Source: an uncultured Myxococcales bacterium
Lineage (GTDB): Bacteria > Myxococcota_A > UBA9042
NCBI GenBank assembly: GCA_903883645.1
Contig: CAISBR010000131.1
Coordinates: 11,871 to 75,870 of the forward strand
Length of the DNA: 64,000 nt
Reading direction: 5' to 3'
This document shows, piece after piece, positions 6,472 through 55,847 of this stretch. A program made the translations under genes and the position numbers. Below the pieces are notes generated by a model, which made no database searches, had not been told where the DNA came from, and worked only from the letters and a program-made list of their open reading frames with translations. The stretch's first letter is position 1; every line of letters begins with the position of its first letter.

Positions 6472-8450
6472 GGCGCCTCCTGTTTCGGCCCGTCGAGCGG
6501 CAGGTCGATGGTAAAGGTGGTGCCCACGCCGAGCTGCGACTCAACACTCAGCTGTCCGCCATGTAAAGCAATGATTTGATGGGCAATTGATAGGCCAAGG
6601 CCCGTACCTTTGCCTTCCTTTGTCGAAAAGAACGGGTCGAAGATGCGGTCGAGATTCTCGCGCGGAATGCCGCAGCCGTTGTCGGCGATGACGACGCGGG
6701 CGCGCTGGTTGGCGTCGCGATGGGCGCTGACCCGCAGTGTCGGGTGGGGCACGCCGTCGAGCGCGTCGAGAGCATTGAGCAGTAAATTGACCAGAACCTG
6801 CACCAACTGCCGGCCATCACAGCGAATCGCGCCCAGATCGGCCTGGATATTCTCGTCGAGCTGCACTGTAGACGACCGCAGCCGATATCCACACATGCCC
6901 AGCGCCTCTTGCAGTAGGTCCGCCAGCGATTCGTCGCCAAAGCGGTTGTGCCCCGGCCGTGCAAACTGCAAGAAACGGTCCAAGATCTGAACACCTCGCT
7001 GATTTTCGCTGCGAATGGCGGCAATGTCGGGCGTGCGGTCGTCGTCGGCGGGCGTGGCGCGGGCCAGCAGCCCGGCAAAGCCTTGGATCGCGTGCATCAC
7101 GTTGCCGAGCTCGTGGGCCAGGCCCGCCGCAATCGTTCCGAGCGAAACCAAGCGGTCGTGGCGGCGCAAACGCTCTTCCAGCATGCGGTCGGCCGTCACA
7201 TCCGTCACGATGAGCACCGCGCCCAATGAACGGTTGCCCTGGCCGAGCAGCGGGTAGGCGTGGATGGCGAGCTGCCGCTGGGTAGGGCCACTGGCCTGTT
7301 CGCCGTCGCCGGTCGATGGATCATACATCCTTGAAATTTCGAACTTTCTCCCCTTGCGTGTATGGATTACCTCTTCGACCGTACGCCACAGCGGCTCGCC
7401 CTCGGGCACGATCTGTGCCAAGTGCATGCCGGGCTCGGGCTTCGACAGCCCCGCTAGCTGGCGACTCGCAGACTGGTTGACCTGTACGACCTCGCCGGCC
7501 AAATCACATGTTAACACGCCCTCTTCCATCGCACGGAACACCGACTCAAGGTAACGCGCCGTCTCGCGCAGCTCGGCCGTCACATCGTCGACGCGCTGGC
7601 GCAGGCGCGCACTCTGCAGCTGCAGCTTGTCGAGCAGGTCGGCGTTTGCCGCGCGCTGTTCTTTCAAAGCATCGACCAACTGCCCAAATCGATACTGCAA
7701 TTGACCGATCTCGTCGCGTGAAGTGGGGGCGATGGCGACTTGATCGAATTTGCCCTCGGCCACGGCTTCGGCCGCCTTGCCCAACTGTGCCAAAGGATTG
7801 GTAATTCTTCGCACATATACCGAGGCCAGGGCCGAGCCCACTAGCATCCACAGCAGCGCCATCGCCAGGGCAACTGCAGTTAAATGAAAGCTTTTTTCGG
7901 CCAGCACCGTCGAGCGAAAAACCAGGTTGATGTTGCCTACGATCTCGCTACCGCGCGCAATCGGCGCCCCAACCTCGTACATCGCATCGTCGCCGACCAG
8001 CGCCGCCAGACCTGGACTGCGCCGTGGTGTCCGAAATGCACCAAATGGCTGCGTTATTTGCGGTTCACGCCCCGGGCGCTTGCGCGACGCCAGCACCTTG
8101 CCGGCGCGGTCGCTCACCACTACCTCGACCACATCGACGGTCTTGTCGAGCCGGTCAAAGAGCAGACCAAAGGCCCTTTCGGTCGGATTCTCGAGCAGCG
8201 CCACCGCACTCGTGGCCACGCTCTGGGCAACGATGGTGCCGTCGCTCAGCACATGCTGGTCCATATCCGTGATTTCGCTCGATAACCACACCAAGGTCTG
8301 GCCGAGCAGCACCAGGCAAATCACGCCCGACATCAGCACGACCAGCTTGGTGCCGAGACTTATCGGTGCGCCACGGAGCCACGCCATCGCTGTTAACCAC
8401 GGCCGCAGACTCAGCTTCATGACTGGCCTCGCATGGGCAAGCTGTGGCAT
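6468..8450 (-). CDS. Transmembrane sensor histidine kinase (TM, HAMP, PAS, HisKA, HATPase_c)
   Basis: H-box [15 protein letters not shown]; N/G boxes [22 protein letters not shown]...GTGLGLSIA. Alternative start ATG at 8420 forms an ATGA overlap with the stop of the upstream cytochrome gene. Confidence 0.85.
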
Positions 8451-14590: not shown

Positions 14591-14726
14591 CTGCCGCAGC
14601 ACGGGATGTTGGGTGTCGTGTGTACGCTGCGGCGGAGTGTGCTAGGATCCCGAGCCGGTCGCCGACTCGGCTGGTCCGTCGCGCCAAAGCCGAATCGCCA
14701 AGCCTTCTTTGCCCTTGGAGCCCTGA

Positions 14727-15977
14727 ATGCAACTGCGCAATCAAGACATTATCTACGACTGGAACGAGGTCAAGCGCACTACGCCGCCTATCGCCCAGGG
14801 CTTTCAGTTGGTCGACGAGACCCTGCGCGACGGGATTCAGTCGCCATCGATCACCAATCCGCACATTGAGCATAAGCTAGCAATTCTGCACAGTATGGAG
14901 CGTCTCGGTATCGATGTGGCCGATGTGGGGCTGCCCGGTGCCGGCGCGCAAGCTGTGGCCGATGTTACGCGCCTTGTCGAAGAAATTCGCGACCAACACC
15001 TGAATATCAAGCCTAATTGTGCGGCACGGACCCACTCGGCCGATATCCAGAGCATCATCGATATCTCGCAGCACACGGGCGTCGAGATCGAGGTCTGCGC
15101 GTTTCTGGGAAGCTCGCCAGTGCGGCAACTAGTCGAAAACTGGGACATTCCGCACATGACCAAGCTGGTGGTGGCGTCGGCGGATCAGGCGGTCAAGGCT
15201 GGGCTGCCGTTTTCGTTTGTGACGGAAGACACCATTCGCTCGCACCCCGAGACGCTGCGCGCGCTATTCAAGGCGGCCATCGACCACGGCGCCACCCGGC
15301 TGATCTTGTGCGACACGGTTGGCCATGCAACTCCAGATGGACTTTGGAATTTGCTCGAATTTACCCGCAGCGTGATCGCCGAGACCGGGGTCAAAGTGGC
15401 GCTCGACTGGCATGGCCACAACGACCGTGCGCTGGCGGTGCCGCTGTGCTTGTCGGCGCTCGAATTCGGCATCGACCGCGTGCACGGCACCTGCTTGGGC
15501 GTGGGCGAGCGCGTCGGCAACGCGTCGATGGACCAGATTCTGTTGAATTTGCGTCTACTTGGTGTGTGGAAGCAGCCGCTGCACGAGCTGCGCCACTACG
15601 TCGACTTGGTGTCGAAGCACTATAGCGTGCCGGTGCCGTACAACTACCCGGCCTTTGGTGTCGATGCGTTTCGCACGGCGACCGGAGTGCACGCGGCGGC
15701 GATCGCCAAGGCGCTCAAAGCCGGGCGGCGCGACCTGGCGGATGCGGTCTACAGCTCGGTGCCCGCGCACGAAGTGGGTTGCAAGCAGCGGATCGATATC
15801 GGATTTTATAGCGGCAAGGCGAATGTAGAGGTCTGGCTCATCGAGCACGAACTCGACGCTACCGAAGAGCGGGTGCACGCGGTGCTGCAGCGCGCCAAAC
15901 AGGGTGATGCGACGCTGACCGATGTCGAAATCTACGAATGCCTGGCCCATCTCGATGGCCGGAGCGGCGCGGTCTAG
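14727..15977 (+). CDS. 2-isopropylmalate synthase / homocitrate synthase family (DRE-TIM metallolyase)
   Basis: ETLRDGIQS, HGHNDRALA, GVGERVGNA motifs of the HMGL-like LeuA/NifV/CimA family. Confidence 0.8.
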   Translation: MQLRNQDIIYDWNEVKRTTPPIAQGFQLVDETLRDGIQSPSITNPHIEHKLAILHSMERLGIDVADVGLPGAGAQAVADVTRLVEEIRDQHLNIKPNCAARTHSADIQSIIDISQHTGVEIEVCAFLGSSPVRQLVENWDIPHMTKLVVASADQAVKAGLPFSFVTEDTIRSHPETLRALFKAAIDHGATRLILCDTVGHATPDGLWNLLEFTRSVIAETGVKVALDWHGHNDRALAVPLCLSALEFGIDRVHGTCLGVGERVGNASMDQILLNLRLLGVWKQPLHELRHYVDLVSKHYSVPVPYNYPAFGVDAFRTATGVHAAAIAKALKAGRRDLADAVYSSVPAHEVGCKQRIDIGFYSGKANVEVWLIEHELDATEERVHAVLQRAKQGDATLTDVEIYECLAHLDGRSGAV

Positions 15978-34066: not shown

Positions 34067-35740
34067 GTGACACTCTTGAGACAGAAACGCGCAGTTGCAG
34101 CGCGGGTGATTGGGCCGACCTGGCAGCCGTGCTATCGTCGTGCTGCCCGCCGTAGCGGGTCGATGGCGCCCATGGCCCGCCGCGGCATTAAACCCCCTGA
34201 AAAGAAAACGAGTCGCCCGGCCGCAACGCTGGGGTCGCCGCTGCTGACGGGCGAAGTGGGCACCCTGTGGCGGCGCGCGCCGACGGAAGTGGTGCTGTGC
34301 TACGCCAACAGCTACCGCGTGGCTGCGTCGAGCCTGGGCTTTCAGCTCATTTACCGCGAGCTGAACCGTCGCGACGATATGGCCTGCCACCGCGCCGTGT
34401 TCGAGCCTCTCGCGGTGCGCGGGCCGTTGCCGCCGATTCGCTCGCTCGAGTACGGCAAGCGCCTCGACGACTACGATGCGATCTTGCTGTCGCTGGCCTA
34501 CGAGCTTGATCTGGCGAATCTTGCTTTGATGCTAGAGGCTTGTGGCCTGTCGCCCCTGGCGAGTGAGCGGCCGGAGTCGGCGCCGCCGCTGATTGTGGGT
34601 GGGCCGGTCACGACCTCGAATGTGCTGCCGCTGGCCGTGTTTGCCGATGTGGTGGTCATGGGCGAGGCCGACGAGCTGATTGTGCAACTGACCGATGTGC
34701 TGGCGCAGCGACCGTCGCGGGCTGAGTTGCGGCGCTGGGCGCTGACGGTGCCGGGCCTTTGGGTGCCGGCAGAGCAGGGCGATGCGGTGCCGGCGCTGCT
34801 GCCGGTGGGCGCGCATTGTCTGCCAGCTTTGGGGCAATTTCGCAGTCCGAATGCTGAGTTTAGCGACATGATGCTGCTCGAGGCGAGCCGTGGCTGTCCG
34901 CGCTATTGCAGCTTTTGCGTGGTCCGCGCCCCCTTGGCGCCGATGCGCGAGCCCGAGCTTGATCGCGTGGTGGCAGCGCTCGATCGCCCTGAATTTGCTT
35001 CGAGTCCGCGGGTTGGCCTTGTGGGCGCGGCCGTGAGCGACTGGGGGCCGATCAAGGGCGCGATGCGCGCCATCATCGAACGTGGCAAAACCTTTGGAAT
35101 TTCGAGCTTGCGGGCCGATCGCTTGGACGAAGACGACGAGTTTGTCGACTTGTTGTACCAGGGCGGTTACCGAACCATGACAGTCGCGTCGGATGCCCCC
35201 AGCCAGCGCATGCGCAACAAGCTGAAAAAAGGTATTCGCGAAAGGCACTTATGGGGCTCGGCCCTGCAGGCGCGGCGCGTGGGCATGAACGGCTTCAAGA
35301 TGTATCTGATCATCGGTTTGCCGGGCGAAGAGGCCGAAGATATCGACGAACTCATCGCGTTTTGCCAGCGCTTGTCGACGCAGGTGCGCACCGCGATTAC
35401 ACTATCGCCCTTTGTGCCCAAGCTGCATACCCCGCTGGCGGCGGCGGAATTTGCCGATCCCGACGCGACCCAGGCGACGTTGCGGCGCATTCAGGCGGCC
35501 CTGGCCGAGCGGGTGGATGTGCGCTTCGACGCGCCGAAGTGGGCCTGGGTCGAGTATCGGCTGAGCCAAGGTGGCATGGCGACAGGGCTTGCCGCGATCG
35601 AGGCTGCGCGCAATGGCGGTGGATCAACGGCGTGGCGGCGGGCGTTGGCGGCCCTGGATGCTCGCGATGCTACAGAAGAACGAGCGGCACTGGCGGCGGC
35701 GGAGCGGCACAAACTGTGGCCGGCGACCGGCGAACGCTGA
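34067..35740 (+). CDS. B12-binding-domain radical SAM protein
   Basis: N-terminal cobalamin-binding-like Rossmann segment, radical SAM cluster motif SRGCPRYCSFC (Cx3Cx2C). Alternative start 34163. Confidence 0.7.
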   Translation: MTLLRQKRAVAARVIGPTWQPCYRRAARRSGSMAPMARRGIKPPEKKTSRPAATLGSPLLTGEVGTLWRRAPTEVVLCYANSYRVAASSLGFQLIYRELNRRDDMACHRAVFEPLAVRGPLPPIRSLEYGKRLDDYDAILLSLAYELDLANLALMLEACGLSPLASERPESAPPLIVGGPVTTSNVLPLAVFADVVVMGEADELIVQLTDVLAQRPSRAELRRWALTVPGLWVPAEQGDAVPALLPVGAHCLPALGQFRSPNAEFSDMMLLEASRGCPRYCSFCVVRAPLAPMREPELDRVVAALDRPEFASSPRVGLVGAAVSDWGPIKGAMRAIIERGKTFGISSLRADRLDEDDEFVDLLYQGGYRTMTVASDAPSQRMRNKLKKGIRERHLWGSALQARRVGMNGFKMYLIIGLPGEEAEDIDELIAFCQRLSTQVRTAITLSPFVPKLHTPLAAAEFADPDATQATLRRIQAALAERVDVRFDAPKWAWVEYRLSQGGMATGLAAIEAARNGGGSTAWRRALAALDARDATEERAALAAAERHKLWPATGER

Positions 35741-43764: not shown

Positions 43765-43970
43765 CGGCTGGGGATGGGGTGGCCACGACCGCGACGGATT
43801 CTGCGCGGCGGCGGAGGCTGCAATGGCAAGGTCGGGCAAGAACGCGACGACATTGCGGTCACGCTGGGTGTGCCGCCTGCGGCGGCTGGGCTGCGACTTC
43901 GGGCGAGCACAGGTTTCGCGAGCCAGCGAGAGGGCTTGCGCCCGAAGCGGCGACGCGCGGGCCCTCTCAT

Positions 43971-44059
43971 TTTCTAAGCTGCCTACGCGGCAGTGAACGA
44001 GATGGCCCAGCAGGATGCGCTCACGGACCTTCTTCTAAGCTGCCTACGCGGCAGTGAAC
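43971..44059 (-). CRISPR. Orphan CRISPR mini-array: two repeats matching the type I-F consensus (28 bp) flanking one ~33-bp spacer; no cas genes in the window
   Basis: Plus-strand repeats tttctaagctgcctacgcggcagtgaac (43971-43998) and cttctaagctgcctacgcggcagtgaac (44032-44059). The reverse complement, GTTCACTGCCGCGTAGGCAGCTTAGAAA, matches the I-F consensus including the CUGCC-N5-GGCAG hairpin. Spacer 43999-44031. Confidence 0.55.
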
Positions 44060-44125
44060 ACCTGCAGGCCTTGCGCATCACAGCGTCAAGAAGGCACTCG
44101 GTCGATAGCGGATCGCTGTAGCCCA

Positions 44126-44222
44126 TCGAGTGCTCAACGCCTTACGGCAGCACGGCGACAAGAAGCTTGGCGCCTACACCAGATGGTGTAGATTGTGTCG
44201 TGCTCAACGTCTTACGGCCAGT
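44126..44222. repeat. Pair of degenerate ~24-bp direct repeats (tcgagtgctcaacgccttacggcag / tcgtgctcaacgtcttacggccag), possibly decayed CRISPR repeats
   Basis: 44126-44150 and 44198-44222; the core gcct-tacgg-cag resembles gcctacgcggcag of the neighbouring I-F repeat. Confidence 0.3.
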
Positions 44223-44322
44223 ACAGCCCCAGGCCAATCGGCAACTTGGCCCGCTGGCGCCTTGCACAGCGAAATCGACAGCCTTGGCAGCGGCTGCGGT
44301 GCCATGTCAAGAATCTCTGGCG

Positions 44323-44796
44323 TTAAGGCAACGAGCGCACTTGGCGCCTGCCCGACCCTTCAGTAGGGCATCGGCCAAATCCGGCCCATGGACCATCATC
44401 GGTTTCCCCTTGTGAATACAATGCAATGGCCTGCCATCCAAAGGATACCAGCCGCTCCACCAAGCCCAGCAGCGACCCCAACGCGCCCCTCCACGCCGCG
44501 TAGCCCATAGGGTCCACAATCAGCAAGGGCCCGTTCGCCCAGCACGGCGTCTGCATCCCCGGCTGGCCACCGGCAAGCGCCAAACGAGCGAACGTTTGCA
44601 GCCGCGGCACGGCATCCGCGCGGGCTAAGTGCAGCTGTAGATGCCACCCGCCGCCGTCGCGGGCAGGCTGTTCACGCACCCGACTCCACGGCGAATTCTG
44701 CAAAATCGCTACCAAAAGGTCGGCACGCGCTCGGCCCTCGATGGGCTGCGGCTCGCCATAATGCCGATACACCGTGTCGATTTGCTCGCCGGTCAT
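44323..44796 (-). CDS. Hypothetical protein
   Basis: ORF only; no motif recognised. Confidence 0.3.
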   Translation of the reverse strand: MTGEQIDTVYRHYGEPQPIEGRARADLLVAILQNSPWSRVREQPARDGGGWHLQLHLARADAVPRLQTFARLALAGGQPGMQTPCWANGPLLIVDPMGYAAWRGALGSLLGLVERLVSFGWQAIALYSQGETDDGPWAGFGRCPTEGSGRRQVRSLP

Positions 44797-44993
44797 GCCA
44801 GACGGCTCAACAGCTTGAACTGGCTAGTACCGCTTGGCGGCAGTGGCTTGGCCCGGCGTGCGAGCGCTTGCAAGCCGGTGAGCCAGGCGCCGCAACCGAG
44901 CTAGCCGATGTGCGGTTTTCGTGCGATGCCGCGGTTGGAGTAGGTGTTTCCTTTGGTTCTAAAGAGTTGTAATGCCTATGGCGCAATGGCGAT

Positions 44994-45056
44994 TTCTGCT
45001 GGCCCTGTGGCTGCTTCTGCTGGCCCTGTGGCTGCCTCTGCTGGCCCTGCGGCTGC
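44994..45056. repeat. Three copies of a 21-bp tandem repeat (ctgctggccctgtggctgcyt)
   Basis: Direct reading; encodes LLALWLL (+ strand) or PQGQQ(K/R)Q (- strand) heptads. Coding status uncertain. Confidence 0.6.
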
Positions 45057-45273
45057 GGTGGCAGCACCGCGTACCCGACCTAGTTGGCGTGTTCGCACGG
45101 GTCAAGCGCAAGCAGCGCACGCAGTTTTGTCGGGAACATCACGGGTTACAACCCGTCGCTGGGCCCCTAGCGCCGCTTGAGTTCGCGCTGCCTGTCATTG
45201 CTGCGGTGCGCCGGGGCTTAATTTGATGCGGAGGCCGATCTGTGACCGTTCGCCCGGAGTTGCGCCTTGTTCG

Positions 45274-45684
45274 CTACATCAACAGCAGGAACACGGCGCC
45301 AGCCGCGGCCGCCATGCGCCCACCGCCCTCGATAATTGCGATGACCTTGCCATATTTCGAGTCGCCCCGAATGACTTTATCTCCATCAAGAATTGCGATG
45401 ACTTTGCCGTATTTCGAGTCCCCAGCGATCAACTTTTCGCCATCGACGAGCGCAATCACTTTGCCATACTTCGAATCGCCGCCAATGACCTTTTCTCCGT
45501 CGACGAGGGCAATCACTTTGCCGTACCTGGAGTCTCCGGCTATCAGCTTGCCGTCCTCAAAGACCGCAATTACTTTGCCATACTTCGAGTCTCCGGCGAT
45601 CACCTTACCAAGCGCCCAAGCAGGCGAGGCCGCGCACACGCCGATTGCCATTGCCAGCCAGAAGTGCAGTAGTTTTTGATACAT
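45274..45684 (-). CDS. Small secreted protein composed of six tandem 19-aa repeats (GDSKYGKVIALVDGEKLIA)
   Basis: ATG 45684 with GAGGGG RBS; signal peptide MYQKLLHFWLAMAIGVCAASPAWA; 57-bp DNA periodicity; lower local GC. Confidence 0.6.
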   Translation of the reverse strand: MYQKLLHFWLAMAIGVCAASPAWALGKVIAGDSKYGKVIAVFEDGKLIAGDSRYGKVIALVDGEKVIGGDSKYGKVIALVDGEKLIAGDSKYGKVIAILDGDKVIRGDSKYGKVIAIIEGGGRMAAAAGAVFLLLM

Positions 45685-45890
45685 CGAGTGTCACCCCTCT
45701 GCCTTGACCATGGTTGCTGGCCTCTTTGGCTGGGCTCCGCCGTGCATCCGCCCGCGTGGGGCGTAGTGTCGCGACAACCTCAGCCTGTATCTGCTCTTGG
45801 CGCCTATCAGCGGCGTCCCTATATCCTTGTTGTAACTGTGGTCTTGCCGTCGTTCAGCGGCCAAGTACCGCCGTCGTGCCGGGCACCACC

Positions 45891-46349
45891 CTAAACCCCA
45901 GCCGGATACCCAACAACCCCAACCTCAATCCCCGCCCGCGACAGCCGCCCCGGCTCAATCGCATTCGTTCCAACAGGATCGGTCTCGGTCCACGCGTGCC
46001 CTTGGCCATAGCCGCTCTCGACACAAAACGCGTGCCGCCACGCCGCCACCAGTCGACGACCAATGTAAAGTCGCGAAATCACCCAGCCTTCCGTCAGCAC
46101 GTCGCACTGCTGGTCCACATGGTAGCGCTGCCGCACCTTGACCGGCCGCTTGCGCTCGGCCAGCTTGCCCACCAGCCACCGCGCCGTAGCGACCGAATTG
46201 TCGCCGTATTCATCCAATTCGTCCGCCAGCAGCAACTCCAGCAGCTGCCGCGCCTGCTTATCGCGAATCGGCTTGTCGGGCACATCGGGAATCAGCGGCG
46301 CATTCTTGTCTGCATAAGCGTAAGGATAATCAGTTGGTTGACTCGACAC
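45891..46349 (-). CDS. Hypothetical protein (cargo of the accessory region)
   Basis: Start re-called to GTG 46349 (GGAGGTG RBS); no motif recognised. Confidence 0.4.
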   Translation of the reverse strand: MSSQPTDYPYAYADKNAPLIPDVPDKPIRDKQARQLLELLLADELDEYGDNSVATARWLVGKLAERKRPVKVRQRYHVDQQCDVLTEGWVISRLYIGRRLVAAWRHAFCVESGYGQGHAWTETDPVGTNAIEPGRLSRAGIEVGVVGYPAGV

Positions 46350-46422
46350 GGGGCACCTCCAAGAAGTTTGAACTGCAGGTACCCTGGCACTTTTCGCCAC
46401 CGAGTGCCAGGGCATTTTTCGC

Positions 46423-46803
46423 CTACCTCTGCTGCGCCAGCCACGCGTCGAACTCCGCCCGCCGCCCCTTCACAGCAAGCTCGTTGACTGCCCCGCACCG
46501 ACATAGCACCACGTAACCCACTGGCTGGCTTGCAATAAATGCATTCGGCTGCGTCAACACCACCGGCACCAGCTTCCCACAGGTCATGCACGGCGCGACA
46601 AGGGTCACATCCGCCACCGCCGCCAACACCGCGTCCCGCCTATGTTTTGCCCCAACTGTGTTATCCGTCCGCGCCACCTCAGCCAGGCGCTTAGCAATCG
46701 TGTTGCGATGCACGCCAGTGCGCTCGGCAACCTCAGCAATCGAGTACCCAGCTTTGTGGTCCTTCAGCAGCATATCCACAACTTCCTTCTTGAGTTTCGC
46801 CAC
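46423..46803 (-). CDS. Small HTH DNA-binding protein with a C-terminal Cys4 cluster (MGE regulator / excisionase-like?)
   Basis: GTG 46803 with GAGAGGTG RBS; HTH GYSIAEVAERTGVHRNTIAKRL; CMTCG...CRCG. Confidence 0.5.
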   Translation of the reverse strand: MAKLKKEVVDMLLKDHKAGYSIAEVAERTGVHRNTIAKRLAEVARTDNTVGAKHRRDAVLAAVADVTLVAPCMTCGKLVPVVLTQPNAFIASQPVGYVVLCRCGAVNELAVKGRRAEFDAWLAQQR

Positions 46804-46850
46804 TTTACACACCTCTCGTTTGCCGCTCGCTTCAGCATTAAGAGTCCATT

Positions 46851-46990
46851 CGCTGGCCGTCGGTAGCCTGTCTGTCTGCGAGTTCGAGAAACGCCTGCCG
46901 CGACGAGTGGCACGCGCTCGGCCGGCCGGCGGATCTGGCCGCGATGGAGTTGATCGAGGCGCGGTTGTGGGTGCGGCGCCGGCTGGGTAG
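46851..46990. repeat. ~140-bp block duplicated at 50582-50716 (about 88% identity; this copy has a 1-nt indel)
   Basis: Both copies were aligned by eye: ctggccgtcggtagcctgtc(t/c)gtctg...gagtggcacgcgctcggccggccggcgga...atggag...gatcga...tag. Confidence 0.6.
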
Positions 46991-47179
46991 GGCAGAGGAA
47001 GGGTGGGTTGCGCTGGATTGCAGTGTCGTGGCCGCCCGGTTCGGGCCCACGGACCTACACCAGCGGCACGAAAGCCCGCGGTGGCACCTGCACATTCTGC
47101 CCGTCGGGATAATTGCGCCGGCGCATATGCCATCACTACAACTGGCGGTCACTGAGGCCATGCCGGCGCGCCGCGGCCG

Positions 47180-47556
47180 CTAGTTGTCGCGTTGCCATTC
47201 GCACTTGCCGGAAAATGGTCTAAAGGCAGGAGTAATCGCCTTTATAATTAGCTGGTTTGCCCTTTGGTTGTTGCCAACCATTCCCGACTCGACCGTCGCT
47301 ACTCGCTGACCTCGTTTGAGCTTGCCACACGCGACGCCATCGGTGCTATCGAGCGTCAGCGCATACCCCTTGCCTGCCAGGGTCAGGCGGCCCGTCACGC
47401 AGCACGCGTTGCCGGCGCAAAGCTCAATCGCCGTGGATCGGGTGTCGAACTTGGCCGTAAGCTGGTTGCCGGCGCAGTCGTAGACACCATCGACGGCGCC
47501 CGCAGCGGGCTGGCTTGTTGCGGCAATGGCCAACACTATAAGATGAAACAGGTAGG
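47180..47556 (-). CDS. Small secreted protein, hypothetical
   Basis: GTG start with AGGTGAA RBS, signal peptide MPYLFHLIVLAIAATSQPAAGA, six Cys; low-GC context. Confidence 0.4.
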
Positions 47557-47668
47557 GCACGGTATTCACCTGAACCAGCACCGAGCTGGCGAAACAGAAT
47601 TGCCCCGAGCGTAGCCAGACTTGGCCGCCACGTCGAGAGGGTGGGCCCGGCTCCATTGGCGTCAGCGC

Positions 47669-48577
47669 CTACCCGGCCACCCGCCCGCCGCGCTCCATCG
47701 GCAGCACCTCCGCCCCACCACCAGGCCCAAGCCCATCAAACCGCCCAAGATCCCCCATGAACGCCGCCGGGCTCAAATGCGCATACCGCAGCGTCAGCTC
47801 GGTCGACTTGTGCCCCAGAATCTTCTGCAGCTTGAACAGATCGCCGCCCGCCATCATCCAGTGGCTAGCGAACGTATGTCGCAGATCATGAAAGCGAATG
47901 TAGTGCGACTGCCGCCCCTGCTCCGGCCGCTTGAACCCCGCCGCGTCGAGCACCTTGTGAAAGCGCTCGCAAAAGATGCGGTCCTTCGACCGGTGCATCA
48001 GCCCCTTGGTGTTCGGAAACAGCAGCCCGCCCGGGCAGCGCAGCCGCCATGCCCGCAAAATCGGCAGCAGCACGTCCAGAATCGGCACATAGCGCACGTC
48101 GCCGGCATTGGTCGGCCCGTCAAAGCTGCGGTCCACGGTGATGATGCGCCGGTCCAGGTCCACGCACTGCCAGCTGAGCGCCGCCAGCTCGCCCTGGCGC
48201 AGCCCGGTGTAGACCGCAGTAGCAAATCGGGTGTAGGCGTCGACGCTATCGTCGTGCGCGGCCCGCAGGAACCGTTGCACCTCCTCGCTGGACCGCAGGT
48301 AGCTGAAGTCCTGGCCGTTGACCCGCACGCTGGGCTTGTCGATGGGCGGCACCGCCAGCAACCAGCCCAGCCGGTGCGCCTGTTTCAGCATCGACCCCAG
48401 CAGAATCAGCAGGTGCCTTAGCATCTGCTTGGACAGGCCGGCGCGCTCGGGCTTGAATACCGCGTTGCGGGCAAGGGCAACGTCTTGCAAGGCCTGCCCA
48501 AGAAGGCCCGGCGCCAACGGCCTGCTTGGCGCCTGCACAGGTGTATCCGCCGGGTACGTCTGCAGATTGGCGCCCAC
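47669..48577 (-). pseudogene. 5'-truncated copy of the tyrosine recombinase (integrase) found at 52375-53508
   Basis: About 90% identical to the full integrase from FKPERAGLS onward (catalytic R...HxxR...Y region intact), but the N-terminal ~125 aa are replaced by unrelated sequence. Confidence 0.7.
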
Positions 48578-48586
48578 CGCCCGCTA

Positions 48587-48605
48587 CCAGGATTCGCACA
48601 GGGCC
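48587..48605. repeat. Degenerate att-like copy of the tRNA-Arg 3' end (ccaggattcgcacagggcc versus cctggattcgaaccagggacc)
   Basis: It sits just 5' of the truncated integrase, mirroring the tRNA/integrase arrangement at 53.5-53.8 kb. Confidence 0.35.
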
Positions 48606-48708: not shown

Positions 48709-50076
48709 GTGCTTGTGTGGCATCTTGGCGCTCGTGCCCTGCCAGACTGGCGCAAACACGACCTACTGGTTGACGCCAGCCGCCGCGGCGTCAAGATCGC
48801 CGCTGTCCGCATCGGGCGCGAGGTCACCATGTTCAGGCTTCTGACGGGCATTGGCTGGTTCGTGATGCTACCGATCTTCCTGGTATCGCACGTTTTTCAG
48901 TCGCTATTCGGCAATCGCAGACTTGGATCGACGGCGTGGGATGCCGGCACTGTGCTGCAAGCGTGCATCGCTTTCCACAAGCCGCAAGCGGGCGATCGTC
49001 CTGAAGTCAAAGTTCGGCTGACCGGTGATAGCGACTACGCGCCCGAGTTGCTGCTCTGGCTCGCCGTTCGCGTCATCCAGGACGCAAATGCGCTACGGTC
49101 AAGGTCGCTTACCCCACTTGGCATGGGGGCGCCGGAATACATCGATCTGCTGGACGCGCGCGCGACAAAGCGCCCATCGCAATGGAGTGCCTCCTGGGCC
49201 CCGTACCTTCGTATGATGCGAGCGACCCACGCGCCGTCGGGTCCGATGGCCTACCAGATCGTTGTGAACCTTGTGGCGGGGCAGCGGCGCAACGCCAGGT
49301 GGCTGTGTATGGTACACCTCGAAGGACCGGTGCCTGATGTTGCGCTTGTCGTCGCGCCCTGGATTCTCTGGGACCATCTATCTGCGGTGCTTGAAGCCGA
49401 CCTCTTGGACGAGATCGACTTGTACGTGCACTCCCTTGAAAATAAGTCCAATTTCCCAGTTGGCCACGTAATGGCGGCGCTCTGGGTAAACCGTGTGTTT
49501 GACGCCTATCTCGCATCGTCGGAGGCGAGAGCCGGAGCCAGCCGTCAAAGCGATTCGCCCGCCCCGTATCCCGAAGGCCACAGGGCCCCATCCCACGGCG
49601 CCGCTGTCGCCGCCACGGAACTCGCGGAAGCCATGAGGATCGACGATGTGCTCAGTATGGCCGCTGCCTACCGCGCTGACCAACTTGCAGTCTCATACCT
49701 TGTTCCAGGCGAGCGCGACCCTGCAAGGCGCTGGGTGACGTACCCTGAGTGCAAATTCTGCAAGGAACCGACCAGCAAGACCGGCAACATTGCGAACATG
49801 TTGTTGTCTGGGATCGGCGACCCAGGCGCCTTCCATGACAGGTTCGGCATGGCGTGCTCGCCCCACGCACAAAGGATGACGGCAGAGCTTGCGCCAGATT
49901 TAGGCAATAGTATTCAAGGTCTGCGACAGACTATTGAGAGGGCCCATGTAGAAATGAGGAAACATGCCGAAATTTATGACGTTGACCACCAGTTCGAAAC
50001 AGACGCAACTACGTTGCTCGACCAGCAGCGGCGCGAGAGGGCCGAAGTACTGGGGAGATACGGATTGGCAAATTAG
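48709..50076 (+). CDS. Hypothetical membrane-anchored cargo protein (455 aa)
   Basis: N-terminal TM (FRLLTGIGWFVMLPIFLVSH; probable start MFRLL at 48829); no recognisable motif; lower GC than its surroundings. Confidence 0.45.
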   Translation: MLVWHLGARALPDWRKHDLLVDASRRGVKIAAVRIGREVTMFRLLTGIGWFVMLPIFLVSHVFQSLFGNRRLGSTAWDAGTVLQACIAFHKPQAGDRPEVKVRLTGDSDYAPELLLWLAVRVIQDANALRSRSLTPLGMGAPEYIDLLDARATKRPSQWSASWAPYLRMMRATHAPSGPMAYQIVVNLVAGQRRNARWLCMVHLEGPVPDVALVVAPWILWDHLSAVLEADLLDEIDLYVHSLENKSNFPVGHVMAALWVNRVFDAYLASSEARAGASRQSDSPAPYPEGHRAPSHGAAVAATELAEAMRIDDVLSMAAAYRADQLAVSYLVPGERDPARRWVTYPECKFCKEPTSKTGNIANMLLSGIGDPGAFHDRFGMACSPHAQRMTAELAPDLGNSIQGLRQTIERAHVEMRKHAEIYDVDHQFETDATTLLDQQRRERAEVLGRYGLAN

Positions 50077-50581
50077 GTGACTGCGCAATCGCGTTCGCCG
50101 GCCGCCTTAATTATCCGTGGCGACCACGTCGGAGCGAAGCTTGAATCCGCCCAAATGGTACCGACTTAATGGTGCGGCGCGCGATTTTGGGCCAAGGTTC
50201 GCAACAGCCGCATACTCCCGCAGCGGCACCCCGTGTCATGGGCTTCGTCGCCAAGAGCGCGTAGTGATTCTGAGTTGGCGGCGAATTCCAACCGAAGTTT
50301 GTAGCTGCCGGGCCTCGGCAACTGCCCCGGTCGATTGCTATCCAGCTTGAGCAGAGCTGCTTTGCAACGCGCCTTCACCTGCCAATGTGCGGACCGCCGT
50401 CGCCCACGGCCCGCCGAGGCGGGAACACGGGCCGGCTACCACGAGCGCGAGCCGGTCCGCGCATCGCGCCGCCCGTCGCCCCCGGGACCCTGATCCGCTA
50501 CGAAACCGGTGCCTGCGCCCTGAACACTGGCGTGACCTCCGGCGAGGCCCGCGCATTGGGCTGCAGGCTCGACGCGCTGGC

Positions 50582-50716
50582 CGTCGGTAGCCTGTCCGTC
50601 TGGGAGTTCGAGAACGCCTGCCGTGACGAGTGGCACGCGCTCGGCCGGCCGGCGGACCTGGCGGCCATGGAGCTGATCGAATCGCGGATGTGGGAGCGGC
50701 GGCGGGCGGGGTAGAG
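50582..50716. repeat. Second copy of the ~140-bp duplicated block (see 46851-46990)
   Basis: Direct alignment with the first copy. Confidence 0.6.
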
Positions 50717-50823
50717 CGACACAATCGAGAAGCCCAGTGGGTTACAGTGCTGCGATCTGGGCGGTTTGGTTATCAAGTGGGCAGCAAGTTGCAGCACCCT
50801 GCCCGGAATGCGCCACAACCCAA

Positions 50824-51222
50824 TTACGACACGCGAACCATCCGCGGGGCGATCCAAAGCGCCAGTGCTGCCAACGAGCAACGCTTTGCCGCCACATCTT
50901 GGATTTTTTGGGCAAGCATCGTAGGGCGCACGGAATCGGCAAGTACGAGTCCGTTCGCACCCAAGAACACAATCATTGCTACCGCTGCCAGGCGCTTGTT
51001 GCCGTCTTCAAAGCAGTGCTTCATCGCTGCGAACCACGCGTAAGCTGCTGCTTTTTCGGCGAGTGTCGGATAGTGGTCTTGCCCCGCAAAGCCGGCAGCC
51101 GGCTGTGCAGCGGTACCGTCTGCACAGCCTTGGTGCAGTTCCGGTGGAACCGGGCGACTCTCCATTGCGAAGAGTTGCCGGTGGAGACTGCGGAGCTCAT
51201 CACCGGTTAGGTAGCGAACCAC
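50824..51222 (-). CDS. doc: Doc (death-on-curing) / Fic-family toxin
   Basis: Fic/Doc active-site motif HCFEDGNKR within ...AAYAWFAAMKHCFEDGNKRLAAVAMIVFL; 132 aa. Confidence 0.8.
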   Translation of the reverse strand: MVRYLTGDELRSLHRQLFAMESRPVPPELHQGCADGTAAQPAAGFAGQDHYPTLAEKAAAYAWFAAMKHCFEDGNKRLAAVAMIVFLGANGLVLADSVRPTMLAQKIQDVAAKRCSLAALALWIAPRMVRVS

Positions 51223-51620
51223 TAGGAATTCCCGAGAATTTCAAGGTCCTCTGCGAAGCGGTTCGCTGTATACCGAAACCATTTCGACAACTCGGCGTCT
51301 AGGCCTTCAAGAGGTGGCGAGGCCAAATCTGCTTGGTGAGCGAAAGGCGGCGGGCCGCCGTGCAGATCGACGAGCCCAGTGACGGCTACGCCCACAGCTC
51401 GGCGAACATTGGGAATTTCAACCTCGCACGGGCATGGAGCCACCAAGCCGGCCGTTACTGCGAATGCAAGAACCGTTGTCGTAACTTTTTCCTGCAAATT
51501 TCCACGGCTCCGCTCCCTGTGCGGCCGGGCAATTCGCTTGATTGGCTTCGCCACAGGTGCCGGCCTAAGGTACCCGTCCGCAGTCCAATCACGAATCATG
51601 TAGTCGTTGAAATCACTCAT
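51222..51620 (-). CDS. Hypothetical protein immediately upstream of, and overlapping, doc; candidate non-canonical antitoxin
   Basis: ORF terminates with a 1-nt overlap at the doc start; no similarity to Phd/YefM recognised. Confidence 0.3.
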   Translation of the reverse strand: MSDFNDYMIRDWTADGYLRPAPVAKPIKRIARPHRERSRGNLQEKVTTTVLAFAVTAGLVAPCPCEVEIPNVRRAVGVAVTGLVDLHGGPPPFAHQADLASPPLEGLDAELSKWFRYTANRFAEDLEILGNS

Positions 51621-52234
51621 TTTGTGTCCATGCTTGCGGCAGATGCAGGTGCAACGACCGCCAACTGGTCTAGGAGCGTGCCCAGGGCTGCCGTCGAGAG
51701 CTGAATTCTGACCACCGGCTCTACTGTTGCTTCTCTTGCGGTAGCTCCAGCTCGGCCCAAATCATGACGAGCCCAGGCCGTCAAGTCGTACAAGTCGATG
51801 GAGGCCTGATACCCCGCGTGAACCATCGCGGCAATCGAAAAGTCTACTTTCACTGTGGGATCTGGATCCGCAGTAAACGCCAGCGGGGGAGCACTATTCA
51901 GACCAGACGAAGTCAAAAACTCGCGGACACGCGGTCCGAATTCCCTGCAACTATTCACCACATCCAGCACACGGTCGGCGCTCGTGCGGGCCACGAGCAA
52001 CTGTGTCAGGCCATCGCCCCGGCACTTTGTTTGGCCGAAAAGCACAAGAATGTCTGCTCCGTCGGTCTCGACTGCAACCCGATCCGCAAGGAATCGGCGG
52101 CTTGGTATGGGGAGGTCGGCTAGCGCAAACGAGACTGTTCCGGTGCCAGGCGGCCCAGGAACAATCGGCAATGCAACACCCGTCGCGCGAGTCAGCGAGG
52201 AAGTGTGCGCCAAACCGGCGCCTTTCTTGACCAT
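51617..52234 (-). CDS. Hypothetical protein, first gene of the three-gene doc operon
   Basis: 4-nt overlap with the next ORF; no motif recognised. Confidence 0.35.
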   Translation of the reverse strand: MVKKGAGLAHTSSLTRATGVALPIVPGPPGTGTVSFALADLPIPSRRFLADRVAVETDGADILVLFGQTKCRGDGLTQLLVARTSADRVLDVVNSCREFGPRVREFLTSSGLNSAPPLAFTADPDPTVKVDFSIAAMVHAGYQASIDLYDLTAWARHDLGRAGATAREATVEPVVRIQLSTAALGTLLDQLAVVAPASAASMDTK

Positions 52235-52374
52235 ACTGCCCTAACCTTGCGGGCCAACGCCGAAGCGAACTTAGGCCCTCCTCATCGTAGTAGGCACGCC
52301 GGCGATCGTCAACAGCCAAGTTGCCCGTCTATGTCGAAAATAATGAGCTTTTGCCGATAATTGAGGGGCTTATG

Positions 52375-53508
52375 CTACCCCACCCGCCGCACCCGCCCGC
52401 CGCGCTCCATCGGCAAAACCTCCGCCCCGCCACCCAGCCCAAGCCCATCAAACCGCCCAAGATCCCCCATGAACGCTGCCGGGCTCAAATGCGCATACCG
52501 CAGCGTCAGCTCGGTCGACTTGTGCCCCAGAATCTTCTGCAGTTTGAACAGATCGCCGCCCGCCATCATCCAATGGCTAGCGAACGTATGTCGCAGATCA
52601 TGAAAGCGAATGTAGTGCGACTGCCGCCCCTGCTCCGGCCGCTTGAACCCCGCTGCGTCGAGCACTTTGTGGAACCGCTCGCAGAAAATCCGGTCCTTCG
52701 ACTGGTGCATGACGCCCTTGGTGTTCGGAAACAGCAGCCCGCCCGGGCACCGCAGCCGCCACGCCCGCAGGATCGGCAGCAGCACGTCAAGGATCGGCAC
52801 ATAGCGCACATCGCCGGCCTTGGTCGGCCCGTCAAAGCTCCGGTCCACGGTGATGATGCGCCGGTCAAGGTCCACGCATTGCCACGTCAGCGCGGCCAGC
52901 TCGCCTTGGCGCAGCCCGGTGTAAACCGCAGTCGCAAACAGGGTATAGACGTCGACGTCATCGTCGTGGGCCGCGCGCAAGAACCGTTGGACCTCCTCGC
53001 TCGACCGCAGGTACGAAAAATCTTTGCCGTTGAGGCGCACGCTCGGCTTGTCGATGGGTGGCACCGCCAGCAACCAGCCCAGCCGGTGCGCCAGCTTCAG
53101 CATCGACCCCAGCAGAATCAGCAGATGCCGCAGGGTCTGCTTAGACAGGCCGGCGCGCTCGGCCTTGAACGCCTCGATGCGAGCAAAGGTAATGTCCTGC
53201 AGCTGCAGCTTGCCAAAGGCCGGAGTCAGGTGGGCCCGCAGCCGGGACGCATCGTCGTTGCCGCTGCGCTTGTGGATCGCCCGCGTGGTCATCCACTGGT
53301 GCGATAGGTCGGCAAAGGTCTTCTTGGGCGGCGGGGCGGGCACTAGGCCCTGCTTGGCCGCATTGACGTTGGCGAGGAGCTGGTGGGTCGCCTGCTGGGC
53401 CTCGTTGTAGCTGTCGAAGGTCTTGGACTGCCGTTGGCCGGCGACGTCGTACCAGCGGACCTGCCACTTGCCGCTCGGCATTCGCTTAGGGTGAACTGAC
53501 CGGGCCAT
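52375..53508 (-). CDS. int: Tyrosine-type site-specific recombinase (phage/ICE integrase)
   Basis: ATG 53508 with GGGAGG RBS (MARSVHPKRMPSGKWQVRWYD); catalytic C-terminus ...HDLRHTFAS...LGHKSTELTLRYAH; adjacent to a tRNA. Confidence 0.85.
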   Translation of the reverse strand: MARSVHPKRMPSGKWQVRWYDVAGQRQSKTFDSYNEAQQATHQLLANVNAAKQGLVPAPPPKKTFADLSHQWMTTRAIHKRSGNDDASRLRAHLTPAFGKLQLQDITFARIEAFKAERAGLSKQTLRHLLILLGSMLKLAHRLGWLLAVPPIDKPSVRLNGKDFSYLRSSEEVQRFLRAAHDDDVDVYTLFATAVYTGLRQGELAALTWQCVDLDRRIITVDRSFDGPTKAGDVRYVPILDVLLPILRAWRLRCPGGLLFPNTKGVMHQSKDRIFCERFHKVLDAAGFKRPEQGRQSHYIRFHDLRHTFASHWMMAGGDLFKLQKILGHKSTELTLRYAHLSPAAFMGDLGRFDGLGLGGGAEVLPMERGGRVRRVG

Positions 53509-53737
53509 CCTTGCCTCCCGAAGGGGCAAGCTATCCATTCGTCTCAACTTCTTCTGCTGACAGTTTTGCCGACTTGTCTGTCAGCAAAACGGCCGGGCAG
53601 GGCGCCTTGGGGGCAGCCGCGCCGCGCCGAATCCCCGGTGTCCGAGCTACCCGCGAGCACCTCGAAAAACAGGGGGGGTACGAGCCTCTCGGGCAATTTT
53701 CGGGCAACGACAGGGGGTCAAAATCGAAATTCCCTAG

Positions 53738-53811
<74 letters not shown>

Positions 53812-53915: not shown

Positions 53916-55847
53916 GTGGCCAACCCAGCAGAATCACCAAAGCTTGCCCCCGCGGCCCCTGTCCTTGGCGACGGCGAACTCCCCTTTCGCGTCACCGATG
54001 CCTGCTTGGCGCATTGTGTATTCTGTGCCGAGCATGTTCCGCGCCGCACGCCCGACCTGGCTACCGACGCCGTGCTGGTCCGCCTGCGCGACCTGCTGCA
54101 CCAGCGCATCCCGCGTCGGCTGCTTTTGACAGGTGGTGAGCCGGCTTTGCACCCCCGCCTGCCCGAGCTCATTGCGCTGGCCCGCGCGGCCGGTGTCGCC
54201 GAAGTTGTGCTTGCCACCCACGGCGCGCCGCTGGCCGACGTGGTCAAGCTCGCGACTTGGCGCCAAGCCGGGCTGACGGGCGCGCGGGTGCTGCTTGTCG
54301 CCGCAAATCAAGAAGACGCCTCTGATCTCACACGTCTAGCCGATAGCTGGCGTTGGCAGCGCATGGGCCTATTGGCGGCGCTGCACCACGGTCTGCGCTG
54401 CGAGGTCGAGACGCCCGTACTCACCCTAACTGCGCCGAACTTGCCCGAAATTGCCGCGTGGCTGGCTGCCCTGCATCAGGCCGAGCGCGGTGCCAAGCGG
54501 CCGGGCCTGGCGGGTTGGCGCCTGCTGCCCTACATCAGCCATCCGCCCGGTGCGCCAGCGAATTTGCACGCGCTGCCCAGGACCATCGAGCCCCTGCTGT
54601 TGCAAGCCCTTACCGCCGCGAGCAGTGCCGATCTGCCCCTGGCGCTGCCGCCGAACCAAGGTTGGCACGCCTGTGCTTTCGACGATGTGCACAAGCTCCG
54701 CGGCCTTCTCGCTCGCACATCTGGCGGACTTTCAAGGGTTTACCTGCCCCAGTGCCACGATTGCGCTGTGCGGCAGCAGTGTCCGGGTGTCGAGGCGACG
54801 TTAGCCGGGCAGGGCGGTCCGGACCTGGTGCGGCCGTTTCGCGACGCGCAGAAGGCGGCCTGGCTTCCGCTGCACCGTGGCGGTACCACGCGCACTGCCG
54901 ATGGCCGGGAGCGCAACGTGCAGGTGCCCGTATCCAAAGACGAAGGCCAGGGTCGCGAGGTTCACGAGCTGGTCGTGCGGATTGTGCACCAGTGCAACCA
55001 GCGCTGCGCCTTTTGCTGGGTCGACTTCGAGGCGCCGCGCATGGAGCTCGCCGAAGTAAAAGACCGCGTGGATCAAGGCTTTACGGGCGGTCAGACGCCC
55101 ACGGTGGCCTTCACGGGCGGCGAACCGCTGCTTCATCCGCAAGTGCTCGAGATGATTGCCTATGCTCACGCTTCGGGTGCGCCCACGGTGTCGCTGCAGA
55201 CCAATGCCAGCCGCGTCCGCAGTCTTGAGCACGCTAGGCAGCTCGCCCAGGCTGGCTTGGGGCACGCGCTTGTGTCGCTGCACGCCGCCGATGCCGCCGC
55301 GTCGGACCACCTGACCGCAGCGCCCGGCACGTTTGAGCGGACCGTTCAGGGGATAAGATGGCTTTGTGAAGCAGGTATTTCCGTCACCATCAATCATGTG
55401 CTTACGCGCGATCTGGCACCCAAGTTTGCAGAGTTTGTGCGTTTTGTCGCAAACGAGCTCGCGCACCCCAAGCTTGGCCTGACTCTCGCCGTCGCCGGCC
55501 ACATCGACGCCGGTCCCATCGATCAGGGCGTGCTGCCCACCCACCGCGAACTTGGGCCGTGGGTCGCGCAAGGTGTTCTGCTCGCTAAGGAATTGGGCGT
55601 GCAGGTGGTGGGGCTGCTGCACCCGTGCGGTCTAGTGCCGTGCGCGCTGCCCGACCCGTGGCCCGTGCTCGATGCCGCCACCCTGCGGCCACCCGCTCTC
55701 GACGATTCGGCGGTGCTGCGCGACGGCGGTGTCAAGTCGGCCGAATGTGAGCGATGTGCTCTGAATCGCATGTGTTTTGGTCTGCGGCGCGAATATGTTC
55801 AGGTGCACGGTCTGGCCGAGCTGCACGCGATCGCTCCGCGGAGCTAG
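53916..55847 (+). CDS. Tandem (di-domain) radical SAM protein with C-terminal Cys-rich (SPASM/twitch-like) region
   Basis: Two Cx3Cx2C motifs (CLAHCVFC at ~aa 30; CNQRCAFC at ~aa 350), each followed by a GGEPxLHP segment (LLLTGGEPALHP / VAFTGGEPLLHP). C-terminal CGLVPC...CERCALNRMC. Start uncertain: the track's start (53511) runs through the tRNA, and GTG 53916 is the first plausible in-frame start. Confidence 0.65.
   Translation: MANPAESPKLAPAAPVLGDGELPFRVTDACLAHCVFCAEHVPRRTPDLATDAVLVRLRDLLHQRIPRRLLLTGGEPALHPRLPELIALARAAGVAEVVLATHGAPLADVVKLATWRQAGLTGARVLLVAANQEDASDLTRLADSWRWQRMGLLAALHHGLRCEVETPVLTLTAPNLPEIAAWLAALHQAERGAKRPGLAGWRLLPYISHPPGAPANLHALPRTIEPLLLQALTAASSADLPLALPPNQGWHACAFDDVHKLRGLLARTSGGLSRVYLPQCHDCAVRQQCPGVEATLAGQGGPDLVRPFRDAQKAAWLPLHRGGTTRTADGRERNVQVPVSKDEGQGREVHELVVRIVHQCNQRCAFCWVDFEAPRMELAEVKDRVDQGFTGGQTPTVAFTGGEPLLHPQVLEMIAYAHASGAPTVSLQTNASRVRSLEHARQLAQAGLGHALVSLHAADAAASDHLTAAPGTFERTVQGIRWLCEAGISVTINHVLTRDLAPKFAEFVRFVANELAHPKLGLTLAVAGHIDAGPIDQGVLPTHRELGPWVAQGVLLAKELGVQVVGLLHPCGLVPCALPDPWPVLDAATLRPPALDDSAVLRDGGVKSAECERCALNRMCFGLRREYVQVHGLAELHAIAPRS

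Follow-up and report, generated by a model that had tools for sequence, protein, structure and literature searches.

Cas-less arrays of type I-F are present in many E. coli strains, in which canonical repeats persist without the cognate cas genes. These orphan arrays are vertically inherited chromosomal remnants that stand at the former cas locus. Mini-arrays, with one or two spacers, are also carried by mobile elements; they share the repeats of the host and draw on its Cas proteins (PMC11656645). The mini-arrays known from viruses and from plasmids (Faure et al. 2019; Saccharolobus SPV1/SPV2) borrow the host Cas proteins for use against related elements (PMC11656645). An RNA anti-CRISPR (Racr), on the other side, is defined as a lone repeat, with neither a full nor a partial further copy within 100 bp, and hence without a 5' handle (PMC10651486). 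Within myxobacteria, two type I-F loci were listed among 731 surveyed genomes, of which 39 were complete and 692 were drafts (PMC11237760, Data Set S2), and one of the two belongs to Sorangiineae bacterium NIC37A_2, of which the repeat is identical at 26 of 28 positions to that of the mini-array described here (PMC11237760).

The DNA under study is a stretch of 64 kb, hereafter referred to as the window, from a contig of an uncultured bacterium. Its minus strand carries two copies of a type I-F repeat around one spacer, in the following arrangement:

44032 to 44059, minus strand: repeat 1 (R1), GTTCACTGCCGCGTAGGCAGCTTAGAAG, the upstream copy in the sense orientation of the repeat; CRISPR-DR4 score 42.5 bits
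43999 to 44031, minus strand: spacer, AAGGTCCGTGAGCGCATCCTGCTGGGCCATCTC, 33 nt with 64% GC, the sole spacer of the array
43971 to 43998, minus strand: repeat 2 (R2), GTTCACTGCCGCGTAGGCAGCTTAGAAA, a canonical type I-F repeat; CRISPR-DR4 score 45.9 bits

Both repeats are 28 nt in length, were aligned from end to end with the Rfam family CRISPR-DR4 (RF01317), and scored above its gathering score of 35 bits. This classification agrees with the sequence-only reading, in which two 28-bp I-F repeats around a 33-bp spacer had been described, and the sequence itself was found as given there. The Cas6f hairpin, with a 5-bp stem (CUGCC/GGCAG) and a 5-nt loop, is intact in R1 and R2. The two copies differ only in the last base, A in R2 being replaced by G in R1, and 55 of the 56 repeat positions of the mini-array are still canonical. 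As a result of this change, the 8-nt handle is CUUAGAAG in R1 and the canonical CUUAGAAA in R2; the base change had not been recorded in the earlier reading. Shuffled versions of the window gave no match to the repeat at three or fewer mismatches, and no further copy was detected in the 64 kb, the next-best site having nine mismatches, indicating that the array is neither a chance match nor a REP-like element. The dispersed REP-like element, which had been named as the finding that would overturn the array, is thus ruled out within the window. The unit of two repeats and one spacer is a genuine type I-F CRISPR mini-array. Array and spacer were identical in six other independent metagenome assemblies (seven including the window), and the array is accordingly not an artefact of assembly. 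The gene for the 516-aa protein next to the array is present on many contigs of independent metagenome assemblies, and the six loci that could be read all carry the same array. Over 12-21 kb, strains with the array share 99.8-99.9% identity with the window; since they differ by only 0.1-0.2%, the invariance of the 89-bp array is uninformative on purifying selection.

For evaluation of the G at the end of R1, the handle was compared with 3,407 repeats of genuine I-F arrays. The last base was A in 99.7% of these repeats. It was G in four of the 3,407, and all four were terminal repeats, of which the handle goes unused. In the mini-array, in contrast, the G-ending R1 is the donor of the 5' handle CUUAGAAG for the sole crRNA that the array could yield. 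The change is weak evidence of decay, since a single random mutation strikes a needed position about 86% of the time. As a separate observation, the antisense of the anticodon loop of the nearby tRNA-Arg gene (53774-53782) reads CTTAGAAG, equal to the R1 handle, which we judged to be chance.

The 33-nt spacer lies within the length range of type I-F, for which about 32 nt is expected: in genuine I-F arrays, 93% of spacers are 32 nt and 5.7% are 33 nt in length. The array can also be parsed with a spacer of 32 nt, if R1 holds an insertion of one nucleotide. The spacer search proposed earlier, against phage and plasmid databases and for self-targeting, returned no protospacer, neither by blastn in the INPHARED phages and PLSDB plasmids nor, for self-targeting, in the 64-kb window. 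Searches of IMG/VR with the exact spacer, with a degenerate pattern carrying N at every sixth base, and with two 22-mer sub-window patterns gave nothing or matches at chance level, and a degenerate 29-mer yielded no protospacer in the JGI metagenomes. Matches of the spacer to EF-Tu and DUF977 genes had E values of 1 or more and were set aside as chance. A donor array was also looked for: the spacer resembled none of the 2,673 unique spacers from about 140 I-F loci, none of those spacers targeted the window beyond chance, and no protospacer was found among the flanks of other I-F loci. Partial matches in the window that combine the seed with a CC PAM were not above chance.

The surroundings of the array include three further features:

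43928 to 43968, no strand assigned: GC-rich hairpin GAGAGGGC...GCCCTCTC, identified by sequence and fold, ending 2 nt from R2
44060 to 44322, minus strand: upstream region of 263 bp, unlike genuine I-F leaders and without a sigma-70-like promoter
44323 to 44796, minus strand: 157-aa ORFan gene, directly upstream of the array and pointing in the same direction; the last gene of island B (see below)

The 263 bp between the 157-aa ORFan gene and the array showed no similarity to genuine I-F leaders, and the flanks of the array showed no homology to the flanks of genuine I-F arrays. No sigma-70-like promoter was detected upstream of the array, in a type of search that myxobacterial promoters may escape. 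The simplest source of an array transcript is probably read-through from the 157-aa ORFan and the other island-B genes. On the other side of the array, the hairpin is followed on the plus strand by TTTTC, which is partly repeat sequence, and because of this T-rich stretch the hairpin is likely to be the terminator of the convergent 516-aa chromosomal gene; transcripts of the array may stop there as well. No homologue of the 157-aa ORFan was found outside the host species, so that no family of array-bearing islets could be built, and its AF2 model (pLDDT 39) was unusable. At a distance of 70-160 bp upstream of the array are two 19-nt direct repeats, GTGCTCAACGYCTTACGGC, at 44130-44148 and 44200-44218, which are 70 bp apart and unique in the window. 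They bracket a palindrome with perfect 8-bp arms, CTACACCA GA TGGTGTAG, at 44174-44191. Together the 19-nt repeats and the palindrome could be an operator, an iteron or a recombinase site.

The position of the array was examined by comparison with the sister species L036 (GCA_037441385.1), which shares 66-80% nucleotide identity with the window and keeps the gene order on both sides. The conserved genes on one side encode a DUF2254 protein, a radical SAM protein, a cysteine-rich protein, an ECF sigma factor, an anti-sigma factor and a 518-aa protein; on the other side are tRNA-Arg(TCT), a radical SAM gene and a kinase gene. Radical-SAM genes thus flank the region, at 34067-35740 upstream of the cysteine-rich protein and at about 54300-55847 beyond the tRNA, both being kept in the sister species. 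The distance from the 518-aa gene to the 3' end of the tRNA is 178 bp in L036, and the corresponding distance in the window is 9,972 bp. The DNA in between is organized as follows:

44323 to 48577, minus strand: island B, the distal islet, with nearly all genes on the minus strand and pointing towards the array
48709 to 53547, no strand assigned: island A, the tRNA-proximal islet, with a full-length tyrosine integrase (52375-53508/53547) adjoining the tRNA
53737 to 53811, minus strand: tRNA-Arg(TCT), the integration site; homology to the empty site of the sister species resumes at 53735, the 3' end of the tRNA

This comparison shows that the approximately 10 kb from the array to 53736 is an insertion at the 3' end of tRNA-Arg, and that the array lies within the inserted DNA, since the empty site of L036 measures 178 bp and similarity to L036 is regained precisely where the tRNA ends on its 3' side. 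No repeat-like sequence was found at the corresponding site in the sister species L036 and L037. In L037, CCACTGCCGCCTAG at 5876-5890, right after the stop codon of the orthologous gene, resembles half a repeat and was judged to be chance. The accessory region with an integrase, at the edge of which the array had been placed in the sequence-only reading, is thereby given a definite form: the empty site in the sister species proves an insertion at tRNA-Arg, with the array at its outer edge. It stands at the tRNA-distal left edge, co-directional with the island-B genes and 70-170 bp from the end motifs specific to island B. Copies of this motif were found at 44166-44179 and 44230-44269, and again at the start of the island-B integrase (48503-48540); these are the only three occurrences in the window, against 0.15 expected, and the 40-nt similarity between the 44166-44269 region and 48503-48540 exceeded all of 300 shuffles. 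The two sites (44166-44269 and 48503-48540) mark the ends of island B.

Island B encodes ORFans, a Bflower_3 protein (45274-45684), an HTH protein (46423-46803), a 158-aa ORFan and a short integrase (47669-48538/48577). The Bflower_3 ORF contains a tandem repeat with a period of 57 bp (45324-45608), and an 84-aa ORF (44972-45226) of the same islet contains a repeat with a period of 21 bp (44979-45056). Besides its integrase, island A encodes a 455-aa ORFan, a 109-aa ORF, a Fic/Doc protein (50824-51222), a 132-aa partner and a 205-aa ORF. The Fic/Doc protein (132 aa, minus strand) overlaps the upstream 132-aa ORFan (51222-51620, minus strand) by one base, and the two are a toxin-antitoxin-like pair. 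The integrases of the two islets share C-terminal parts that are 90% identical over 823 bp (47668-48489 versus 52379-53201), and a segment of 144 bp is 89% identical between the islets (46851-46993 versus 50575-50717). The distal, island-B integrase is about 90 aa shorter at the N-terminus. No phage structural, replication or conjugation genes were detected in the insertion, and the small island proteins gave no match to defence, phage or anti-CRISPR families or to solved structures. Ungapped and gapped searches for a tRNA-derived att direct repeat gave nothing above background; a tRNA-like stretch at 48577-48603 was considered as att, and with p of about 0.14 it was not used. With its shortened integrase and no detectable att repeat, island B looks degraded.

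Gene content identifies the host as an uncultured member of Myxococcota of Polyangia type, in agreement with the myxobacterial host assumed in the sequence-only reading. Among the products of the window are a 1423-aa MXAN_6577-like cysteine-rich protein (NF041328, 476 bits), sigma-54 activators and several Ser/Thr kinases, and for the 516-aa LA_2272-repeat protein, named relatives were found in Sorangium, Sandaracinaceae and Myxococcales. The absence of cas genes from the 64 kb, claimed before, was borne out. Profile scans of the neighbouring ORFs with Pfam, NCBIfam, PADLOC and PHROGs gave only chance-level matches to cas genes, and so did tblastn of the whole window with two complete sets of I-F Cas proteins. 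The array has no adjacent cas1, cas2-3 or csy1-4 and no cas-proximal leader of the kind that belongs to a type I-F CRISPR-Cas locus. A scan of a genome collection with the repeat yielded 28 loci, all of them proteobacterial except for one in a Deferribacterales MAG; the host was not among them. The exact 28-mer was found in many arrays of beta- and gammaproteobacteria, among them Burkholderiales, Pseudomonadales, Vibrio and Halomonadaceae, and on many unassigned metagenome contigs, and was absent from IMG/VR.

Three observations were made on other I-F loci. Curvibacter lanceolatus ATCC 14669 (L014, NZ_KB906280.1) has one perfect copy of the repeat, on the minus strand at position 3460 of an 8-kb locus, and no second copy within these 8 kb at up to seven mismatches, which makes it a candidate for a Racr-type solitary repeat unit. 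Contig L113 (SDBS01015242.1), of 62% GC, carries a two-repeat I-F mini-array on the minus strand at 6465-6552, with a copy of a promoter-like sequence, about 35 nt in length (GGCTCTAGG...GTGCTACGAT), on either side. In a 66% GC I-F operon (L158-L162), cas2-3 and csy1 are separated by an inserted HepT/MNT toxin-antitoxin pair (in L158 at 5461-6134), and this arrangement recurs in several metagenomes and in GCA_031415135.1.

Complete type I-F systems were found in relatives of the host. The NIC37A_2 locus was recovered from metagenomes as a contig with cas1, cas2-3, csy1-4 and 56 repeats (L039) and as the csy-proximal end of the locus with 55 repeats (L093); the Cas6f of this locus is annotated as that of NIC37A_2. 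The Polyangiaceae MAG GCA_033763455.1 (L164) contains a full I-F1 operon with 44 repeats of GTTCACTGCCGCACAGGCAGCTTAGAAA, and its Cas6f is 63% identical to that of NIC37A_2. Between this repeat and that of the mini-array, stem and handle are identical, and two loop bases differ. IS66-family genes (TnpB_IS66 and a DDE transposase) at 13630-15535 lie within the array span of L164, which suggests insertion of an IS into that array. The candidate Cas6f clusters were all from other samples, none of the five sharing the sample accessions of the host. Cas6f/Csy machinery predicted to be compatible with the mini-array thus exists in the wider lineage of the host, though it is rare. Type I-F had been regarded in the sequence-only reading as out of keeping with a myxobacterial host. 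Its rarity, with two loci in 731 myxobacterial genomes, agrees with that view; the presence of full I-F operons in related Polyangia does not, and a type I-F array in this host becomes less surprising in the light of Sorangiineae and Polyangiaceae MAGs with full operons and repeats that differ at 2 of 28 positions.

The Polyangia I-F loci (NIC37A_2 and GCA_033763455.1) resemble the mini-array in repeats that are 26/28 identical, in an identical Cas6f stem, in the identical handle of L164, and in a taxonomic neighbourhood that matches that of the host. They are, however, full loci with cas1, cas2-3, csy1-4, 40-55 spacers and a cas-adjacent leader, all of which the window lacks, and no spacer is common to both. 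From the orphan I-F arrays of E. coli the mini-array differs in that it came within an insertion at a tRNA gene. It also resembles the mini-arrays of viruses and plasmids, with which it shares one spacer between two full repeats, the lack of cas genes, a mobile carrier and a presumed dependence on host Cas proteins. In agreement with this class, we found a single spacer without cas genes, on an insertion of about 10 kb with two integrases that is absent from the sister species. The carrier differs in being a small, non-viral and non-conjugative islet integrated at a tRNA gene in a myxobacterium, and the base at position -1 of the handle is atypical. Viral mini-arrays are convincing through the match of their repeats to the host and through a target in a related element, whereas the likeness found in the present case is one of structure. 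Two other kinds of guide were considered and rejected. A crRNA-like regulatory RNA (CreA/crlRNA), which has degenerate repeats in or next to a cas locus and a spacer with partial complementarity to the promoter of a toxin or cas gene, does not fit a locus with no cas genes, canonical repeats and no seed-plus-PAM match above chance in 64 kb. A guide of a type I-F3 CAST, for which such genes accompany a short or atypical array, does not fit a window without Tn7-like tnsABC, tniQ or csy genes and an element of which the integrases are all of the tyrosine type.

We tentatively favour the interpretation that the mini-array is cargo of a mobile element, placed at the outer edge of an islet and needing I-F Cas proteins in trans. 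Having neither cas genes nor an adaptation leader, the array could work only in trans. Its anatomy, its type I-F identity, its position in the insertion and the occurrence of compatible I-F systems in related Polyangia are established here, and we infer the following course. The array would be transcribed from the minus strand, probably by read-through from the string of island genes. The Cas6f hairpin of R1 would serve for 5' processing and leave the 8-nt 5' handle, and that of R2 would form the 3' hairpin; cutting at both hairpins by Cas6f would release a single 61-nt RNA consisting of the CUUAGAAG handle, the 33-nt spacer and the 3' hairpin. This crRNA would be loaded into the type I-F Csy (Cascade) complex of the host or of a former host, and the loaded complex would be directed to DNA that matches the spacer, most plausibly that of a competing mobile element. 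Two complete repeats provide a 5' handle, and hence a complete crRNA is predicted rather than a decoy. Also in favour of this reading are the full-length repeats with intact hairpins, a spacer length in the I-F range, the place of the array in the inserted DNA and in line with the island-B genes, and compatible Cas6f/Csy machinery in the lineage. A role as a guide in trans is opposed by the absence of cas genes from the 64 kb, by the lack of a protospacer in the collections searched, by the failure to detect a promoter or leader, by the G at the end of the handle-donating repeat, by the rarity of type I-F in myxobacteria, and by the degraded look of island B.

The same observations make it nearly as likely that the mini-array is an inactive relic or passenger, once functional in an earlier I-F host or left over from a longer array, and now, in a host that would lack the cognate Cas proteins, neutral DNA still to decay. 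Besides the lack of cas genes in 64 kb and the two I-F loci in 731 myxobacterial genomes, this explanation is consistent with the finding of the exact repeat only in proteobacteria and on unassigned metagenome contigs, never in a myxobacterial locus; with the failure to detect target, promoter and leader; with the location of the sole mutation in the handle required by the only crRNA; and with an island B that has a shortened integrase and no att repeats. The handle change carries little weight, however, given the frequency with which a random mutation would strike a needed position. A relic is also opposed by the 55 canonical positions among 56, which imply either recent arrival or selection, by the presence of compatible I-F systems in Polyangia, and by published surveys in which most repeat units of mobile elements match a host system, as do 83% of solitary units (PMC10651486).

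It is unlikely that the array acts as an RNA decoy or regulator, which through the G(-1) handle or through partial complementarity to promoters would sequester Cas6f/Cas7f or repress host genes. Like Racrs and viral crRNA-like RNAs, the array is on a mobile element far from cas genes; its handle is atypical at a base conserved at 99.7%; and no fully matching target was found in any of the collections searched. As with RacrIF1, the repeat is of type I-F, is carried by a mobile element that has integrated, and would be bound and cut by Cas6f. RacrIF1 is solitary, however, as Racrs are in general, and inhibits by the missing 5' handle (PMC10651486), whereas the mini-array consists of two complete repeats and a spacer, with the 5' handle present. 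With two full repeats 33 nt apart, it was rejected as a member of the Racr class; the SRUFinder pipeline, too, treats a pair of full repeats less than 100 bp apart as an array and removes it (PMC10651486). Neither hallmark of Racrs, an own upstream promoter and an adjacent acr gene, was detected: no sigma-70-like site was found directly upstream, and there was no acr-like neighbour, the neighbouring proteins being unlike solved anti-CRISPRs in sequence. Seed-plus-PAM partial matches in the window stayed at chance level, and a change of one base may leave binding by Cas5f/Cas8f intact. Both roles offered in the sequence-only reading, hijack of a host Cas complex and RNA decoy, thus found no evidence, there being no protospacer for the former and a two-repeat unit outside the Racr definition for the latter.

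A native chromosomal orphan array, with the repeats beside the 516-aa gene before the islets came and unrelated to the mobile element, is very unlikely. In its favour, the left border of the insertion could be placed only approximately, since no att repeat was detected and the stretch of 206 bp from the 516-aa gene to the array has no alignable counterpart in the sister species; the array also lies outside the outermost island-B-specific motif and abuts the probable terminator of a chromosomal gene. Against it, L036 and L037 have no repeat-like sequence at the site, and the array is co-directional with the island genes with nothing else between.

Returning to cargo that depends on I-F Cas proteins in trans, a stronger form of this interpretation is that the islet, in a freshwater member of Polyangia, actively exploits the rare type I-F systems of myxobacteria, either with a one-guide weapon aimed at rival elements or with a G(-1) 'poisoned crRNA' that lacks a productive Cas5f/Cas8f head. 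We consider it quite unlikely. If the poisoned-crRNA version were true, the islet would make a Racr-like inhibitor from a complete mini-array, on which Cas6f/Cas7f is assembled, instead of from a solitary repeat. To our knowledge, a minimal tRNA islet is an unusual carrier of a mini-array, and Myxococcota is an unusual phylum for one. Active or not, the locus adds one data point and no new principle. If inactive, it would be a footprint of horizontal traffic between I-F-bearing bacteria and a myxobacterium. If active, it would carry mini-array hijack beyond viruses and plasmids, into minimal integrative islets and into Myxococcota, and would mark this uncultured lineage as a host of type I-F in a phylum where type I-F is barely documented.
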